NCBI GenBank assembly: GCA_963773695.1
Contig: CAVZCE010000001.1
Coordinates: forward strand, 205,702 to 269,701
Direction of reading: 5' to 3'
Source of the DNA: an uncultured Chloroflexia bacterium
GTDB taxonomy: Bacteria > Chloroflexota > Limnocylindria > QHBO01
Length of the DNA: 64,000 bases
Shown: positions 2,991 through 61,474 of the stretch, piece after piece
Numbering within the stretch: the stretch's first letter is position 1
How the letters are laid out: each line of letters begins with the position of its first letter
Made by a program: the position numbers and the translations under genes
Notes under the pieces: generated by a model
What the model was told of the DNA's origin: nothing
Seen by the model: only the letters and a program-made list of their open reading frames with translations
Databases searched by the model: none

Positions 2991-4244
2991 ATGCCCTGGC
3001 AGCGCGAGACCGATCCCGTGGAGTACCAGAAGTACGGACCTCCTTCCACCGGTTCCCAACCGGAGTGGGAGCGGAGCGCGCCCGCATGGTCGACGCGTCC
3101 GCCAAGCTCCCCGGAGCCGCAGCCCGCGGCGCGGAGCGCGCTCCTGCCGGTCGTCATCGTGGCGCTCGTGGTCGGCATCGTCTCCGGCTCGCTGAGCTCG
3201 GTGGCGATCATGAACCTGGTAGGCCCCGGGCCTGCCTCCCAGCCGCTGGCGCAGTCCTCGAGCAGCGTCGCGACCAGCGTGAACCTGGAGGAGTCCTCCG
3301 CGGTCATATCCGCGGTGCAGCGCGTTGCTCCCGCCGTCGTCACCATCACCGCGGAGAGCGGGACGAACGCTTCCGGCAACGGCATCGGCTCGGGCTTCAT
3401 CTTCGACGCCAACGGCTGGATCCTCACGAACAAGCACGTCGTCTCCGGAGCGGACCGCCTGTCGGTCCGCCTCAACGACACGCGCTCGTTCCCGGCGACC
3501 GTCTACGGCATCGACACCCTCACCGACCTGGCGATCGTCCGCATCCAGGCCTCGGGGCTGCCCATCGCCCATCTCGGCAGCTCGGCGAACCTGCAGTCCG
3601 GCCAGGTGGCGATCGCCATCGGCAACCCGCTCGGCACGTTCGAGAACACCGTCACCACCGGCGTCGTCTCCGGCCTCGGCCGGCAGATCACCGCGGGCGA
3701 CTCGGGCGGCCAGACCGCAGAGGACCTGAACAACCTGATCCAGACCGATGCCGCCATCAACCCGGGCAACTCGGGCGGACCGCTCGTCGACTCGGGCGGC
3801 AACGTGATCGGCATCAACACCGCGGTGAACCAGAACGCGCAGGGCCTGGGGTTTGCGATCCCGATCGACGTTGCCAAGCCGATCGTGCGGCAGGCGCTGG
3901 CCGGCCATCCGCTCGCGCGTCCCTGGATCGGCGTCTACTACCAGCTGGTGACGAAGGGGCTGGCCCAGGATCGCCACCTCTCCGTGGACTACGGCGCCCT
4001 CGTCGGGTCATCCGATCCGACCGCGCCGGCGGTCTTCAGGGGCAGCCCGGCGGCGACCGCGGGGATCCGCGACGGTGACGTGATCCTGTCGATCGACGGG
4101 GTTCGGGTGGACGCGGCCCACGACCTGTCGAGTCTCATCGTGCCGCACGACCCCGGCGACCGGATCTCGCTGAAGGTCCTGCGCGGCGGACGGACGACGA
4201 CGGTCTCGCTCACGCTGGGGACGCTGCCCGCACAGAACGGCTGA
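2991..4244 (+). CDS. HtrA/DegP-family trypsin-like serine protease with C-terminal PDZ domain (PepD-like)
   Basis: GSGFIFDANGWILTNKHV (His), DLAIVRI (Asp) and GNSGGPLVD (Ser) form the catalytic triad context. A PDZ-like tail follows (GDVILSIDGVRV). There is an N-terminal TM segment, and an AGGAGAG RBS lies 11 nt upstream. Confidence 0.85.
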   Translation: MPWQRETDPVEYQKYGPPSTGSQPEWERSAPAWSTRPPSSPEPQPAARSALLPVVIVALVVGIVSGSLSSVAIMNLVGPGPASQPLAQSSSSVATSVNLEESSAVISAVQRVAPAVVTITAESGTNASGNGIGSGFIFDANGWILTNKHVVSGADRLSVRLNDTRSFPATVYGIDTLTDLAIVRIQASGLPIAHLGSSANLQSGQVAIAIGNPLGTFENTVTTGVVSGLGRQITAGDSGGQTAEDLNNLIQTDAAINPGNSGGPLVDSGGNVIGINTAVNQNAQGLGFAIPIDVAKPIVRQALAGHPLARPWIGVYYQLVTKGLAQDRHLSVDYGALVGSSDPTAPAVFRGSPAATAGIRDGDVILSIDGVRVDAAHDLSSLIVPHDPGDRISLKVLRGGRTTTVSLTLGTLPAQNG

Positions 4245-4252
4245 CCGACGGC

Positions 4253-4624
4253 TCAGCCGTCGCGGGGGCGACGGACGGTCACCTCCACCGCCTGGAACGG
4301 CCCGGGGAGCGGGGCGCGCGGCTTTCGCACCCGCACCTCCACCCGGCGCGCACCGCTGGACTCCAGCACGGCATCCGCGATCTTCCCGGCGAGGGCCTCG
4401 ATGAGGCGGAAGCTCTCCCCCTCCACGATGCGCGCCACGAGGCTGAAGACCGCCCCGTAGTCGATGGTGTCCTCCAGGGCGTCGCTCGCCGTCGGCCGGT
4501 CCAGGTCCGTCCACAGCTCAACGTCCACCTCGAAGGGCTGCGGCTCGAGGCGCTCCTCCAGCGTGACGCCGTGGCGTGCGAGGAAGAGCATGCCGCGCAG
4601 GACGATCCTGTCGTCGTCGGTCAC
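4253..4624 (-). CDS. folB: Dihydroneopterin aldolase
   Basis: VTDDDRIVLRGMLFLARHGVTLEERLEPQPFEVDVELWTDL..DTIDYGAVF.. matches the FolB family. The GTG start overlaps the folP stop as GTGA. Confidence 0.8.
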   Translation of the reverse strand: MTDDDRIVLRGMLFLARHGVTLEERLEPQPFEVDVELWTDLDRPTASDALEDTIDYGAVFSLVARIVEGESFRLIEALAGKIADAVLESSGARRVEVRVRKPRAPLPGPFQAVEVTVRRPRDG

Positions 4625-5508
4625 GACTCCGCGCTCCCGCCGGCTGCGGCAGCCGGCGTTCCGGTTCCGAAGCGGACGATGGCGTCCGCCACCCGGATCG
4701 TGCGGGAGATGGGGGCCACGTCGTGGACGCGCACGATGTCGGCGCCGCCGGCGATGGCGAGCGCGACGCTGGCCGCCGTCCCTTCCAGCCGATCGTCGGG
4801 CGGCGCCCCGTCCAGCAGCTCGCCGATGAACCGCTTGCGCGAGGTCCCGACCAGCACGGGCAGCCGGAGGACGGCCTTGATCCGGGCCAGCCCGTGCAGC
4901 AGCGCCAGGTTCTGGACGCGGGTCTTGGCGAAGCCGATGCCGGGGTCGACGACGATGCGTTCGCGCGGGACGCCGAGCCGGATCGCCGCGTCGACCGCCT
5001 CCGCCAGCCACGCGGTCACCGTCTCGACGACGCCGTCGGGGTAGTTGCCGGCCCCGCTGTTGTGCATGATCACGAGGTGGGCCCCGGCACGGGCGGCCGC
5101 GACGGCGGTTCCCGGGTCCCGCTGCGCGCCCCACACGTCGTTCACGATGACCGCCCCCGCGTCGAGTGCCGCGGCCGCCACCTCCCCGCGGCTGGTGTCG
5201 ATGCTCACCAGCGCCCGGCCCGCGAAGGCGCTCGCGAGGGCGGCCACGACGGGCACCGCGCGGGCCAGCTCGACCTCCGGATCGACCGGCTCCCGCTCAC
5301 CGTACGCACTCGGCGGCCGGGTCGACTCCGCGCCGACGTCGAGGATCTCCGCGCCCGACTCGACGAAGGCCCGCGCCTGCTCCAGCGCCGCGGCCACCGT
5401 TTCCGCCTCACTGCGCCCGGGGAGCGCCAGCCCGTCACCCGAAAAGGAGTCGGGCGTGACGTTCACGATGCCCATCAGCCAGGTCTTCTCGCCGAAGGTC
5501 AGCTCCAC
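4621..5508 (-). CDS. folP: Dihydropteroate synthase
   Basis: MELTFGEKTWLMGIVNVTPDSFSGDG...ILDVGAESTRP...VSIDTS...HDV match the pterin-binding DHPS fold. Its start overlaps the folC stop by 10 nt. Confidence 0.9.
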   Translation of the reverse strand: MELTFGEKTWLMGIVNVTPDSFSGDGLALPGRSEAETVAAALEQARAFVESGAEILDVGAESTRPPSAYGEREPVDPEVELARAVPVVAALASAFAGRALVSIDTSRGEVAAAALDAGAVIVNDVWGAQRDPGTAVAAARAGAHLVIMHNSGAGNYPDGVVETVTAWLAEAVDAAIRLGVPRERIVVDPGIGFAKTRVQNLALLHGLARIKAVLRLPVLVGTSRKRFIGELLDGAPPDDRLEGTAASVALAIAGGADIVRVHDVAPISRTIRVADAIVRFGTGTPAAAAGGSAES

Positions 5509-58874: not shown

Positions 58875-59084
58875 GTGCCGGATCTCAAGCAGCATCCCTA
58901 CGAGCACCAGCGGCCGCAGCGACCGAGCCACCTGCCGTACCGGACCGACCCCCCGCCGGAGCGGCGCGGGGCGCCCGACATGCGCCTGGCGCTCTACGTG
59001 GGGCTGGTGCTGCTCGGGATCGTGGCCTTCTTCGCGGTGCCGTACATCGTCCAGTACCTGCTTCTGTGGCTGACCGGGGGCTGA
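58875..59084 (+). CDS. Possible small protein with a C-terminal TM helix (69 aa), low confidence
   Basis: It ends LALYVGLVLLGIVAFFAVPYIVQYLLLWLTGG and starts with GTG. There is no family match. Confidence 0.25.
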   Translation: MPDLKQHPYEHQRPQRPSHLPYRTDPPPERRGAPDMRLALYVGLVLLGIVAFFAVPYIVQYLLLWLTGG

Positions 59085-59097
59085 GGCGCCGGACGGT

Positions 59098-59922
59098 TCA
59101 GACCTGGGCGGTCCAGACGTACACCGTCCCGCCGGTGACCTTCACCTTCGGCCGGGAGAGGGGCGGGAGCGAGATCGGGTAGGCTGCCGCATCGCCGGCG
59201 TAGGCGCCCGATGCCCGCCATTCGCGGGGTCCGTTGGCCAGCTGGCCGTTCAGGTCGAAGCTCGCCCCGTGGCACGGGCAGCGCAGATCCTGCCAGTCCG
59301 GGCGGTAGTGCAGGGTGCAGCCCATGTGGGTGCAGACCGCCGCCAGGGCCCGGATCTCTCCCGCGTCGTTCACGACGTAGCCGTCGAAGGCGGCGGTGGT
59401 GAAGCGGACCGCACTGCCCGCCGGCAGGTCGGCCACGGCGACGACGGGGTGCCAGTACCCCTCGCCGGAGACGAGGGGCGTCGACCCGCCGGCCAGCAGG
59501 CCTCCGGAGGACGATGGCTCGCCGCGCAGGGCGGCCATTCCCAGGGCGCCGGCGGCCAGGCCCGCGGCCGCGCCGATGCCGCCCTGCAGCAGGGCGCGCC
59601 GCGAGAGGCGCACGCGTCCCGAAGGGGTGGGCGCCGTCGGCACGACGGGATGACGCAGCGGAGGCGGGGTCCGGACCGCCGCGATGCCGGCATCGGCCTG
59701 GCGCATCCGGAGCCGGAGCTGCTCGACGAAGGCAGGATCGGGATCCTGGCCGGTCCCCGTGGTGCCGGCCAGCTCAGCGGCGGTGCGGGCCATCTCGGCT
59801 TCGTCGCGGCCGGCGACGTTCTCCGGCGAGGGACGCTCGCCGCTCACCAGCGCGTCGAGATAGCGATCGAAGCGGTCGGCCATCCCGGGCTCGTCGGCAG
59901 GCCGGCCCGGTCGGTCAGGCAT
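59098..59922 (-). CDS. Putative anti-sigma factor: cytoplasmic N-domain, one Tat-like TM segment, and an extracytoplasmic Rieske [2Fe-2S] domain
   Basis: The ATG overlaps the ECF sigma stop as ATGCCTGA. SRRALLQGGIGAAAGLAAGALG is the TM/Tat-like segment. CTHMGCTLHY and CPCHGASF are the Rieske boxes. Confidence 0.6.
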   Translation of the reverse strand: MPDRPGRPADEPGMADRFDRYLDALVSGERPSPENVAGRDEAEMARTAAELAGTTGTGQDPDPAFVEQLRLRMRQADAGIAAVRTPPPLRHPVVPTAPTPSGRVRLSRRALLQGGIGAAAGLAAGALGMAALRGEPSSSGGLLAGGSTPLVSGEGYWHPVVAVADLPAGSAVRFTTAAFDGYVVNDAGEIRALAAVCTHMGCTLHYRPDWQDLRCPCHGASFDLNGQLANGPREWRASGAYAGDAAAYPISLPPLSRPKVKVTGGTVYVWTAQV

Positions 59923-60574
59923 CCGGCGCCTCCTCGAGGAGCGCGGCCTTCCGCAGCGCCCGGTACTGCAGCACCTTGGCATTTCCGTGGCTGATGCCCA
60001 TCCGATCCGCCGTCTCCGCCACGGAGAGGCGCTGGAGGAACCGCAGCTCCAGGACCCGCCGGTAGTTCTCCGGCAGGCGCCGCAGGAGCGCCGCGACCCG
60101 GTGGCTGGCCGCGTCGGCGGCGGATCGCTCCTCCGCCGTCTGCGGGGACTCGCCGGCCGTCGCCATCGGCGCCGGATCCGCGGGCTCCCAGCCGGGGGCG
60201 ACCTGGTCACTGGCCACCAGCGGCAGGCGGTAGAACGCGCGCCAGTAGTCGGCGATGGCGTTCTGGCTCACCCGGTAGAGCCAGCTGGCGATCTGTCCGG
60301 GGTCCCGGGTCGTGTCGAGCTGCTCAACGGCGCGCAGGAAGACCTGGGCGGTGAGGTCCTCCGCGTCGGGACGGTTCCCGACACGGGCGTAGATGAAACG
60401 GTAGATGGGCACCACCTGGGCGTCGTAGATCTCCTCGAAGCGTCCGCGCGGAGCCGGGACGGCGGGCGAGGGGCTCTCCGCGGCAGCGTCCGCGCCGGGA
60501 GCACCAGGTGTCGGCGAGCCTCCTGCGGGTGAAGGCACCGGGAGGTCGCGCGGCGCTCGTGGGCGAGTGGCCAT
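59915..60574 (-). CDS. ECF (sigma-70 group 4) RNA polymerase sigma factor
   Basis: Region 2 is FEEIYDAQVVPIYRFIYARVGNRPDAEDLTAQVFLRA. Region 4 is YRRVLELRFLQRLSVAETADRMGISHGNAKVLQYRALRK. The N-terminal 45 aa are low-complexity, so the start may be internal. Confidence 0.8.
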   Translation of the reverse strand: MATRPRAPRDLPVPSPAGGSPTPGAPGADAAAESPSPAVPAPRGRFEEIYDAQVVPIYRFIYARVGNRPDAEDLTAQVFLRAVEQLDTTRDPGQIASWLYRVSQNAIADYWRAFYRLPLVASDQVAPGWEPADPAPMATAGESPQTAEERSAADAASHRVAALLRRLPENYRRVLELRFLQRLSVAETADRMGISHGNAKVLQYRALRKAALLEEAPDA

Positions 60575-60605
60575 CCCGACCTGATACGCCGCCGGTTACG
60601 GCCCG

Positions 60606-61100
60606 CTAGGGCCGCGGCCGCAGGGGAGCGAGGAGCGCGGCGATCTCCTCCAGGAAGAGCCGGTCCGTCTCGTCGAAGGCGGCGGGGTCGGATGCATCGA
60701 TGTCGATCTCGCCCACGACCTGCCCCTCGCTCAGGATGGGGACCACGATCTCGCTGCGGGTGGTGGCGAAGCAGGCGAGGTAGCGTGGGTCCGCGCTGAC
60801 GTCGTCCACGATCTCCGTCTGGCCCGATGCCGCCGCGGCGCCGCAGATCCCCTCCCCGATCGGGATCCGGGTGTGCTCCGTGGCCTCCGGTCCGATCCAC
60901 GGCCCCAGGACGAGGTCCGTGCCGTTGACGTCGACCCAGTAGATGCCGATCCAGTCGTAGTGCGGGAAGCGCTCGTGCAGCTCTTCCACCGCGCGCTGGG
61001 CTGCAGCCTCCGGGCCCGGCGCCTCGGCCACCGCCTGGCGGACCAGGTTGAGGGCGTCGCCATGGGCGAGGGGTCGCTCCTCGAGGACGGGATGGCTCAT
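60606..61100 (-). CDS. GAF-domain protein (free methionine-(R)-sulfoxide reductase / fRMsr-like)
   Basis: HYDWIGIYWVD...GEGICGAAAASGQTEIVDDVSADPRYLACFATTRSEIVVPI is the fRMsr-type GAF. The ATG overlaps the HxlR stop as ATGA. Confidence 0.65.
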   Translation of the reverse strand: MSHPVLEERPLAHGDALNLVRQAVAEAPGPEAAAQRAVEELHERFPHYDWIGIYWVDVNGTDLVLGPWIGPEATEHTRIPIGEGICGAAAASGQTEIVDDVSADPRYLACFATTRSEIVVPILSEGQVVGEIDIDASDPAAFDETDRLFLEEIAALLAPLRPRP

Positions 61101-61474
61101 GATCTCGCCGCCCAGCGGTCCGCCCACGCGTTGATGGGCAGGATGAGCAGCCGCAGGTCCTCGCCCTTGGGCGTCAGCGAGTACTCGACCCAGGGTGGGA
61201 CCTCCGAGATGAGGCGCCGCTTCACGAGGTCCTGGTCCTCCATCAGCTTCAGGCGCTGGGAAAGGGTGGCCGAGTTCGCGCCGCCCAGCGCGTCCTGCAG
61301 CTCGCAGAAGCGCTGCGTCCGACCCCCCAGGGCCCACACGATGCGGAGCACCCACTTCTGCCCGAGGACGGTGAGGGCGGCGGTCGCGGGACACTCGGCG
61401 TGGCGTGCGGCGTCGCGCCGCTCGGCCCGCGAGCGGACGTGGGAAGGGGTCGGTGAAGCGACGGCGGCGTTCAT
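61097..61474 (-). CDS. HxlR-family transcriptional regulator
   Basis: CPATAALTVLGQKWVLRIVWALGGRTQRFCELQDALGGANSATLSQRLKLMEDQDLVKRR is typical of HxlR. Confidence 0.8.
   Translation of the reverse strand: MNAAVASPTPSHVRSRAERRDAARHAECPATAALTVLGQKWVLRIVWALGGRTQRFCELQDALGGANSATLSQRLKLMEDQDLVKRRLISEVPPWVEYSLTPKGEDLRLLILPINAWADRWAARS

Follow-up and report, generated by a model that had tools for sequence, protein, structure and literature searches.

A putative ECF sigma/anti-sigma module with a Rieske [2Fe-2S] domain from an uncultured Chloroflexota bacterium

A stretch of 64,000 nucleotides from an uncultured Chloroflexia bacterium of the Limnocylindria (contig CAVZCE010000001.1, positions 205,702 to 269,701; referred to in its full length of 64 kb as the window) harbors a gene for a sigma factor of the extracytoplasmic function (ECF) type that overlaps the gene for a membrane protein with a Rieske [2Fe-2S] domain. 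The two genes probably form an ECF sigma/anti-sigma module, which looks like a switch that reads the redox state or the cluster integrity outside the cell. This assignment is supported by comparative evidence; sigma binding, inhibition and redox sensing are inferred. The Rieske protein starts with a cytoplasmic helical region (hereafter the N-domain), whose association with the sigma factor is at the core of the argument.

Conservation of the gene pair

Close relatives of the Rieske protein, encoded in metagenome-assembled genomes of Chloroflexota/Limnocylindria, share 59-79% identity over 94-100% of its length, and in all of them the sigma gene is located directly upstream with the identical 8-bp overlap. 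By themselves, these cases prove little, because the respective genomes are syntenic across many genes. A profile of the N-domain only was searched against 1.84 billion representative proteins and matched 48 of them, including members of 217-246 aa with N-domains about 20-35% identical to that of the window. Every full-length match was composed of the N-domain, a twin-arginine (RR) motif followed by a hydrophobic segment, and a Rieske domain. With a second profile derived from the distant members, 234 further proteins were recovered, among them representatives from Amycolatopsis, Mycobacterium, Pseudonocardiales, Dormibacteraeota and other Chloroflexota. Five such lineages possess mutually unrelated flanks, and each time an ECF sigma gene immediately precedes the Rieske gene with a 4-bp overlap (ATGA or GTGA).

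A metagenome scan contributed 80 more loci, and all loci (designated by L and a number) were scored with local hidden Markov models (HMMs) of the sigma factor and the N-domain. A protein with both N-domain and Rieske domain is encoded in 68 loci. Directly upstream, 52 of these carry a complete ECF sigma gene, and in eight others the sigma gene is cut by a contig end or a frameshift. As five loci comprise insufficient upstream DNA, the sigma gene is thus found directly upstream in 60 of 63 informative loci, usually with an overlap of 4 or 8 bp. In the three exceptions, a remnant of the sigma gene is left (L036), a gene is truncated at its 5' end (L038), or an inversion has placed TatA between the two genes (L041). 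As a control, 31 Rieske loci without an N-domain from the same metagenome scan were inspected, none of which has a sigma factor of this family. According to the initial annotation of the window, the proposal would fall if orthologues of the Rieske protein were never adjacent to sigma factors; this attempt at refutation failed. All sigma factors encoded next to distant Rieske homologues are members of a single family (local HMM E 1e-50 to 1e-81), and therefore both genes have been inherited as a unit. Lineages with the pair are Chloroflexota/Limnocylindria, Amycolatopsis, Mycobacterium and Dormibacteraeota, in addition to soil metagenomes; the family comprises hundreds of non-redundant sequences and is frequently met in Actinomycetota and Chloroflexota from soil.

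Outside the Rieske proteins, the N-domain was found, by local HMM, only in fusions with a sigma factor. Ten metagenome loci possess an additional gene directly upstream of the sigma gene; its product is a divergent sigma paralogue, whose sigma region 4 is recognized by Pfam and which bears a copy of the N-domain at its C-terminus. These fusion proteins have neither a membrane segment nor a Rieske domain. One-chain (Rosetta-stone) fusions of this kind suggest that the separate partners likely interact, and hence they argue for a physical contact of the sigma factor with the N-domain.

The sigma factor and the gene overlap

Both conserved regions of the sigma factor are detected by Pfam (Sigma70_r2, 7e-11; Sigma70_r4_2, 7.7e-12), and a score of 81.5 bits against TIGR02937 (sigma70-ECF; cut-off 42.9) places the protein in the ECF (group 4) sigma factors, in agreement with its initial annotation. 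The top NCBIfam model is TIGR02952, i.e. the BldN family (ECF121 in the ECF classification 2.0), which is matched with 105.8 bits and thus under its cut-off of 206.45; the protein accordingly lies outside the BldN equivalog family. Among solved structures, the protein comes closest to BldN as crystallized with RsbN (6dxo_A, E 3e-21). A Pro/Ala-rich N-terminal extension of the sigma factor is missing in relatives of 172 aa; BldN is made as a proprotein that likewise has an N-terminal extension (PMC7826278).

The Rieske gene begins at the ATG within the octamer ATGCCTGA, in an 8-bp overlap with the sigma stop codon; this overlap had been noticed from the outset. Both genes lie on the minus strand. 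In the window's clade, the overlap takes the form ATGnnTGA; it is ATGA or GTGA in distant clades. Such a stop/start overlap is the signature of a presumed translational coupling of the sigma factor and the Rieske protein. The equivalent Met is the start in 120 homologues, which span 94-100% of the protein. A longer open reading frame in the same frame (59098..60210) is not the gene, as the homologues all start at the overlap Met; it is an artefact that arises because a stop codon is missing.

Architecture of the Rieske protein

The order of N-domain, Tat (twin-arginine translocation) motif with transmembrane segment and Rieske domain is common to 120 close and 120 distant full-length homologues. 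In the AlphaFold model, which rests on 58 homologues, the three N-domain helices reach predicted local distance difference test (pLDDT) values of about 70-79. A conserved P-D-P directly precedes helix 3, and a Pro-rich linker runs from the helices to residue 106. An N-domain of about 85 aa, as proposed in the initial annotation, hence matches the helical part, and the whole cytoplasmic stretch amounts to about 106 aa. The conservation of the N-domain equals that of the Rieske domain. When modelled alone with AlphaFold, it again yields three helices, with no confident tertiary arrangement (pLDDT 71; predicted template modelling score, pTM, 0.31). A lack of fold in the isolated region is as expected of a segment that might fold onto a partner.

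The single Tat-like transmembrane segment that had been read from the sequence is borne out by the SRRALL motif and by a helix in the AlphaFold model that covers the hydrophobic segment of the Tat motif (residues 108-132). Nearly every one of 240 family members carries a twin-arginine motif of the type [ST]RRx[LVF][LIV] ahead of the hydrophobic segment. With this motif, a mildly hydrophobic segment and a subsequent cofactor domain, the protein displays the features of a predicted Tat substrate with an uncleaved signal-anchor.

The claim of a C-terminal Rieske domain holds as well: Pfam matches residues 157-234 (E 7e-15), both ligand boxes are present, and the beta-sandwich is modelled with pLDDT 89-98 across residues 151-230. 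The cluster ligands are C197, H199, C215 and H218, accompanied by the bc-type disulfide pair C202/C217 (codons within 59269..59334). They reside in the boxes C197-T-H199-M-G-C202 and C215-P-C217-H218 (CTHMGC...CPCHG). The pattern CxHxxC...CxCH, with an invariable gap of 12 residues, is retained by 236 of the 240 family members. Four ligands plus a second Cys per box are the sequence hallmark of high-potential Rieske proteins of the bc1/b6f type. No cytochrome b gene is found beside the Rieske gene in the window or in annotated related loci, and so the genetic context of a cytochrome b complex, typical of a bc-type Rieske protein, is lacking there. Among solved structures, 8hn2 (Chlorobaculum Rieske), 5cxm (PetC3) and 9rk4 come closest, all of them compact Rieske proteins with a membrane anchor. 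In one relative (protein P0163, L019 3906..4559), the boxes are degenerate (CTHLGV...CPCR) and the sigma partner and N-domain are kept; P0163 has probably lost its [2Fe-2S] cluster.

In the biogenesis of Rieske proteins, the cluster is inserted in the cytoplasm, and the folded domain then crosses the membrane via the Tat pathway. From cytoplasmic cluster loading and folded Tat export, an N-in, C-out topology follows for the Rieske protein, and an exported, cluster-bearing state of the predicted Rieske domain is strongly indicated by the sequence. tatA genes adjoin the sigma/Rieske module in Mycobacterium-type loci (L014 3041..4266, L015 661..921, L041 415..711), and L014 has in addition tatC beside it. 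Dedicated tatA/tatC neighbours would fit a Tat-dependent insertion of the Rieske protein.

Resemblance to the BldN/RsbN pair

The partner of BldN in Streptomyces venezuelae, RsbN, is the founding class III anti-sigma factor (PMC6101532; PDB 6dxo). Within its residues 1-91, RsbN contains three helices with flexible linkers between them: helices 1-2 rest on sigma4, and a P-K-P hinge precedes the long helix 3, which sigma2 and sigma4 clamp between them; one helix that spans the membrane (residues 118-139) is followed by an extracytoplasmic domain (PMC6101532). The window protein resembles this arrangement in its helices (residues 14-26, 39-54 and 63-84), its P-D-P before helix 3, its transmembrane helix 108-132 and its extracytoplasmic C-terminal domain, and also in that its gene adjoins the sigma gene. 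It thus shows the class III layout with three linked helices in the first ~90 residues, one transmembrane helix and a BldN-like sigma partner. Moreover, an alignment of the window's sigma factor with 6dxo_A covers 13 of the RsbN-contacting BldN residues listed in PMC6101532. Eight are identical (F15, Y19, D20, F48, F137, L138, Q161 and Y162), three are conservative replacements and two differ, with an overall identity to BldN of about 44% across the aligned regions.

A match to RsbN in sequence or fold, which would mark homology within class III, was not obtained, and in contrast to the shared layout the N-domain has no detectable sequence similarity to RsbN. The resemblance is one of layout and of the partner's binding surface, and the N-domain can therefore be called class III-like in its layout, as a candidate member of that class. 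Features of class I anti-sigma domains (RsrA, ChrR, RslA and RskA type) are absent: three helices are present instead of four, and there is no zf-HC2 or RskA-type match, no HxxxCxxC and no Cys/His motif. Further differences concern the outer domain, which in RsbN (272 aa) is not a Rieske domain, and the mode of membrane insertion, since RsbN is, as far as we know, not a Tat substrate.

A promoter-like motif upstream of the sigma genes

The sigma gene and the adjacent gene for a GAF protein are separated by 31 nt that contain the sequence GTAACCGGCGGCGTA, which conforms to YGTAAC-N6/7-CGTA and stops 10 nt short of the sigma ATG. This is the sole match in the 64 kb, where 0.05 would be expected. 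In aligned upstream regions, YGTAAC-N6/7-CGTA(K) precedes the sigma genes in nearly all clades, and 58 matches were counted in 494 kb of loci, as opposed to about 7 in shuffled sequence. Among 56 unique instances, the spacer measures 6 bp in 19 and 7 bp in 34, and there is no conserved box further upstream. Start codons mostly follow 1-14 nt past CGTA, at times 21-30 nt, and thus CGTA sits at the position of a putative -10 box of a leaderless or short-leader mRNA. The motif also precedes the sigma-N-domain fusion genes, genes for amicyanin-like cupredoxin lipoproteins from three different clades (L010, L013, L030), divergent genes for membrane proteins without Pfam match, in L027 next to a Pfam-confirmed DoxX protein, and genes for a Tat-signal PAP2/vanadium-haloperoxidase-like protein and a Lipoprotein_15 protein.

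Similar boxes are found in the promoters of BldN (CGTAAC-N16-CGTTGA; PMC2375139) as well as ShbA (CGTAAC-N16-CGATGA) and SigD (GTAAC-N17-18-CGAT) (PMC12019637), in comparison with which the spacer of the present motif falls short by ~10 bp, or about one helical turn. If the motif is a real promoter, it would escape standard ECF promoter searches, which are restricted to spacers of 15-18 bp (PMC7776599). A search for 5-mer/4-mer pairs with 14-19 bp spacers returned only GC-rich noise, and a scan for the sigma-70 consensus gave no match. For most genes, we rejected the idea that GTAAC acts as an ordinary -35 box whose -10 box follows after 16-18 bp, because the start codon lies 1-14 nt past CGTA and no conserved box occurs at the required place. 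An alternative is that the motif represents a direct-repeat site of another regulator.

It is tempting to combine these observations into a bolder proposal, namely that this would be the first anti-sigma factor sensing by a Tat-exported Rieske centre and that its sigma factor uses promoters with a 6-7 bp spacer. In such a system, the Rieske centre could read the redox state of sigma-controlled carriers of the cupredoxin type. The conjunction of both parts is rather unlikely in our estimation. If true, the GTAAC and CGTA boxes would be positioned at about -24/-12, and an undescribed mode of promoter engagement by the sigma-70 family would be required.

Neighbouring genes

The flanks of the pair were described as redox-themed in the initial annotation. 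On the upstream side, this stands for a GAF protein of the free Met-R-sulfoxide reductase type, which keeps both Cys at catalytic positions, and for an HxlR-family regulator, and both neighbours fit an oxidative-stress theme. MarR and transketolase-like genes are present too. The theme is, however, clade-specific and outside the conserved module: the synteny of GAF and HxlR genes with the sigma gene holds in the Limnocylindria-like clade only. Likewise, the segment 54602..58859 with transketolase-like, aminotransferase and IscA/HesB-type Fe-S assembly genes is syntenic with the module in Limnocylindria only. The transketolase-like protein is unusually long (789 aa), and its N-terminal region matches transketolase models far below the cut-offs. 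Convergent with the Rieske gene, a plus-strand gene (58875..59084) encodes a 69-aa protein with one hydrophobic helix and no Pfam/NCBIfam family, which is 55-88% identical at the equivalent position in Limnocylindria relatives.

Among the relatives, 21 of 68 loci contain cupredoxin genes, often directly downstream of the Rieske gene, and several of these carry the motif described above. The products are amicyanin-like lipoproteins with the copper loop C-x2-H-x2-M, and their genes are often followed by a metallophosphoesterase gene. In L066, the anti-sigma-like Rieske gene is directly followed by a gene (4217..4750) for a second, short Rieske protein with a Tat signal and without an N-domain, and then by Lipoprotein_15 and PAP2-family genes. 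High-potential Rieske centres have their natural redox partners in blue copper proteins. One attractive reading is that the anti-sigma factor monitors an extracytoplasmic electron-carrier system under the control of its own sigma factor.

Table 1. Features of the window and of related loci. Coordinates without a locus designation refer to the window.
Feature	Coordinates	Strand	Remarks
Anti-sigma-like Rieske gene	59098..59922	minus	274 aa: N-domain, Tat motif and transmembrane segment, Rieske domain
Cytoplasmic N-domain	59671..59883	minus	residues 14-84; AlphaFold helices 14-26, 39-54, 63-84 with flexible linkers
Tat signal-anchor	59527..59604	minus	residues 107-132; S107-R-R-A-L-L and Gly/Ala-rich hydrophobic segment; read from the sequence
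Predicted extracytoplasmic Rieske [2Fe-2S] domain	59101..59460	minus	residues 155-274
ATGCCTGA octamer	59915..59922	minus	Rieske gene start codon overlapping sigma stop by 8 bp; read from the sequence
ECF sigma gene	59915..60574	minus	219 aa; regions sigma2 and sigma4 only
N-terminal extension of sigma	60446..60574	minus	~43 aa, Pro/Ala-rich; absent from 172-aa relatives
GTAACCGGCGGCGTA	60585..60599	minus	YGTAAC-N6/7-CGTA motif
GAF protein gene	60606..61112	minus	free Met-R-sulfoxide reductase type; 3mmh E 7e-30
HxlR-family regulator gene	61097..61474	minus	Pfam; overlaps GAF gene; resembles redox regulator RrpB
Sigma-N-domain fusion genes	L066 2157..2939; L045 2124..2915
Further fusion loci	L050, L053, L060, L063, L064, L069, L071, L082
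Cupredoxin examples	L013 5720..6109; L014 2342..2827; L030 ~4290..4763; L038 1495..2040; L010 3957..4406
Other motif sites	L010 3854; L013 5678; L016 5693; L019 2798; L030 4217; L045 2094/2120/2889; L066 2129/2910

Proposed mechanism and alternative explanations

For the sigma/anti-sigma module, the following course of events can be proposed. The BldN-like sigma factor would be made together with the 274-aa Rieske protein through the overlapping stop and start codons. The Rieske domain would then be loaded with its [2Fe-2S] cluster before leaving the cytoplasm in folded form through the Tat system, with the twin-arginine signal staying behind as a membrane anchor and the three-helix N-domain remaining cytoplasmic. 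There, the N-domain may wrap sigma2 and sigma4 and hold the sigma factor at the membrane as RsbN holds BldN; helices 1-2 would presumably cover sigma4, and helix 3, the long one, would lie between sigma4 and sigma2. An altered state of the extracytoplasmic Rieske centre could subsequently set the sigma factor free; candidates are oxidation, reduction, or a loss of the cluster caused by oxidants, copper or a lack of iron. The most likely route is a destabilization and regulated proteolysis of the anti-sigma factor, possibly by cleavage of the anchor as reported for RsiV and RsiP. The free sigma factor may then transcribe its own operon and, in many relatives, could also drive extracytoplasmic redox genes such as those for the amicyanin-like cupredoxin lipoprotein and DoxX-type membrane proteins. 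These neighbouring genes share the GTAAC-N6/7-CGTA motif.

A number of results weigh against this proposal. The initial annotation had suggested looking for an anti-sigma fold in the N-domain, and no HMM or fold match to a known anti-sigma domain emerged: Pfam and NCBIfam scans with the whole protein and 20 isolated N-domains at E up to 10 revealed no anti-sigma family, N-domain profiles of the close clade and of both clades gave chance matches to PDB sequences at E up to 10 and missed RsbN (6dxo), and a Foldseek search of the N-domain model against the PDB retrieved nothing meaningful. Mutual information over 44 sigma/N-domain pairs was dominated by phylogeny and provided no usable signal. 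When the N-domain profile was searched against the 1.84 billion representatives and then against a database of 5.8 billion sequences, no new domain combination surfaced; both searches returned only proteins with N-domain and Rieske domain, fragments and frameshifted calls. Unlike many anti-sigma modules, the N-domain is thus never combined with other sensor domains. In addition, the 64-kb window contains no cupredoxin gene and no second copy of the motif, and the spacer of 6-7 bp misfits the canonical geometry of ECF promoters, so that autoregulation is at most putative.

Alternatively, the Rieske protein could be an ordinary electron-transfer protein that acts with the cupredoxin, as subunit or partner, in a small extracytoplasmic redox chain, its gene being merely a target in the sigma operon. 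Instead of binding the sigma factor, the N-domain would then assist in Tat targeting or in cofactor proofreading, acting as an internal binding region for chaperones. This possibility draws on the complete bc-type centre, on the function of the nearest solved relatives as electron carriers, and on the amicyanin-like cupredoxins, second Tat-Rieske gene, DoxX, cytochrome bd or Ccm genes that recur nearby; an N-domain that occurs with no other sensor domain and matches no anti-sigma family is compatible with it as well. It is nevertheless unlikely, as it leaves unexplained why ten fusions join a sigma factor to an N-domain without transmembrane segment or Rieske domain, and why the sigma gene, with its overlapping codons, is the sole invariant neighbour across phyla. 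Moreover, a cytochrome b gene adjoins the Rieske gene neither in the window nor in the inspected loci, and Rieske export has, to our knowledge, no need for a structured region of ~106 residues before the Tat motif. Far less probable still, and strongly disfavoured, is an adjacency that reflects nothing but inherited synteny or operon packing at high GC content, without a functional link. Overlaps of 4-8 bp are indeed common in compact high-GC operons, and the whole neighbourhood is syntenic within Limnocylindria; yet the pair outlives a full turnover of its flanking genes across four phylum- or order-level lineages, Rieske loci without an N-domain have no sigma factor, and fusion proteins exist.

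A different function of the same contact is conceivable, too: the Rieske protein could be a positive factor or membrane tether that stabilizes or activates the sigma factor instead of inhibiting it. The fusions are reminiscent of ECF sigma factors with C-terminal regulatory extensions, which are able to activate or to inhibit (PMC7826278), and BldN is poorly soluble without RsbN (PMC6101532). Against such a role stands the layout of a classical anti-sigma factor, i.e. a helical cytoplasmic domain, one transmembrane segment and an outer domain, encoded by an overlapping downstream gene. RsbN as the nearest structural analogue is an inhibitor, and we consider a role as positive factor or tether improbable.

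Relation to known systems

The candidate module is similar to classical single-pass ECF anti-sigma systems, with a cytoplasmic part that resembles RsbN. With RsrA/SigR and other class I zinc-binding redox anti-sigma factors it would share a redox-active centre as the proposed signal input. RsrA is cytoplasmic and senses by Cys thiols and zinc within the anti-sigma domain itself. In the present case, sensing is instead proposed for a [2Fe-2S] domain that is separate and extracytoplasmic, and there is neither a zf-HC2 match nor an HxxxCxxC motif. A precedent for the control of anti-sigma activity by an iron-sulfur cluster is reportedly provided by the [2Fe-2S] anti-sigma factor RsmA of Streptomyces coelicolor, the partner of SigM. 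RsmA is said to be a soluble cytoplasmic protein with a kinase fold (HATPase-type) that acts on a non-ECF sigma factor and has no Rieske fold, membrane anchor or Tat export.

On the side of the Rieske domain, the closest counterparts are the Chlorobaculum protein (8hn2), cyanobacterial PetC3 (5cxm) and Kuenenia kuste4569 (9rk4), which share the compact Rieske fold, the pattern CxHxxC...CxCH, the disulfide pair and a Tat-type signal-anchor, but are devoid of the cytoplasmic helical domain of ~106 residues and of a sigma partner. A possible model for signal transmission is offered by RsiV and RsiP, which are cleaved at site 1 by signal peptidase (PMC8844934). Both are single-pass proteins, as predicted for the window protein, and the state of their outer domain decides on a membrane-proximal cleavage. 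A similar release would be plausible in the present case, because the anchor is a Tat segment that resembles a signal peptide. In contrast to the window protein, the sensors of RsiV and RsiP bind lysozyme or beta-lactams.

Three differences from described systems were found, namely a Rieske [2Fe-2S] domain as the sensor, insertion by a Tat signal-anchor and an N-domain of no annotated anti-sigma family. In databases, members of the family are named only as Rieske, cytochrome b6-f or ferredoxin subunits. A full-text literature search found no paper that links an anti-sigma factor with a Rieske domain, or an ECF sigma factor with Rieske and cupredoxin proteins. Rieske domains do not appear in the main text of the ECF re-classification paper; a brief mention in its supplementary group descriptions is conceivable. 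RsbN homologues have been reported solely from Streptomyces (PMC6101532).

Implications

Pairs of ECF sigma and anti-sigma factors constitute a major bacterial route for sensing conditions outside the cytoplasm, and the signal is unknown for most groups. In the proposed module, the sensor would be a spectroscopically tractable Rieske [2Fe-2S] centre with a measurable redox potential, which renders the stimulus directly testable. Such experiments are feasible, since culturable carriers of the pair exist in Amycolatopsis and Mycobacterium. A cofactor-loaded, Tat-exported anti-sigma factor would furthermore tie sigma activity to Fe-S cluster assembly and to Tat function. Finally, our findings suggest that the RsbN-type (class III) architecture may extend well past Streptomyces.

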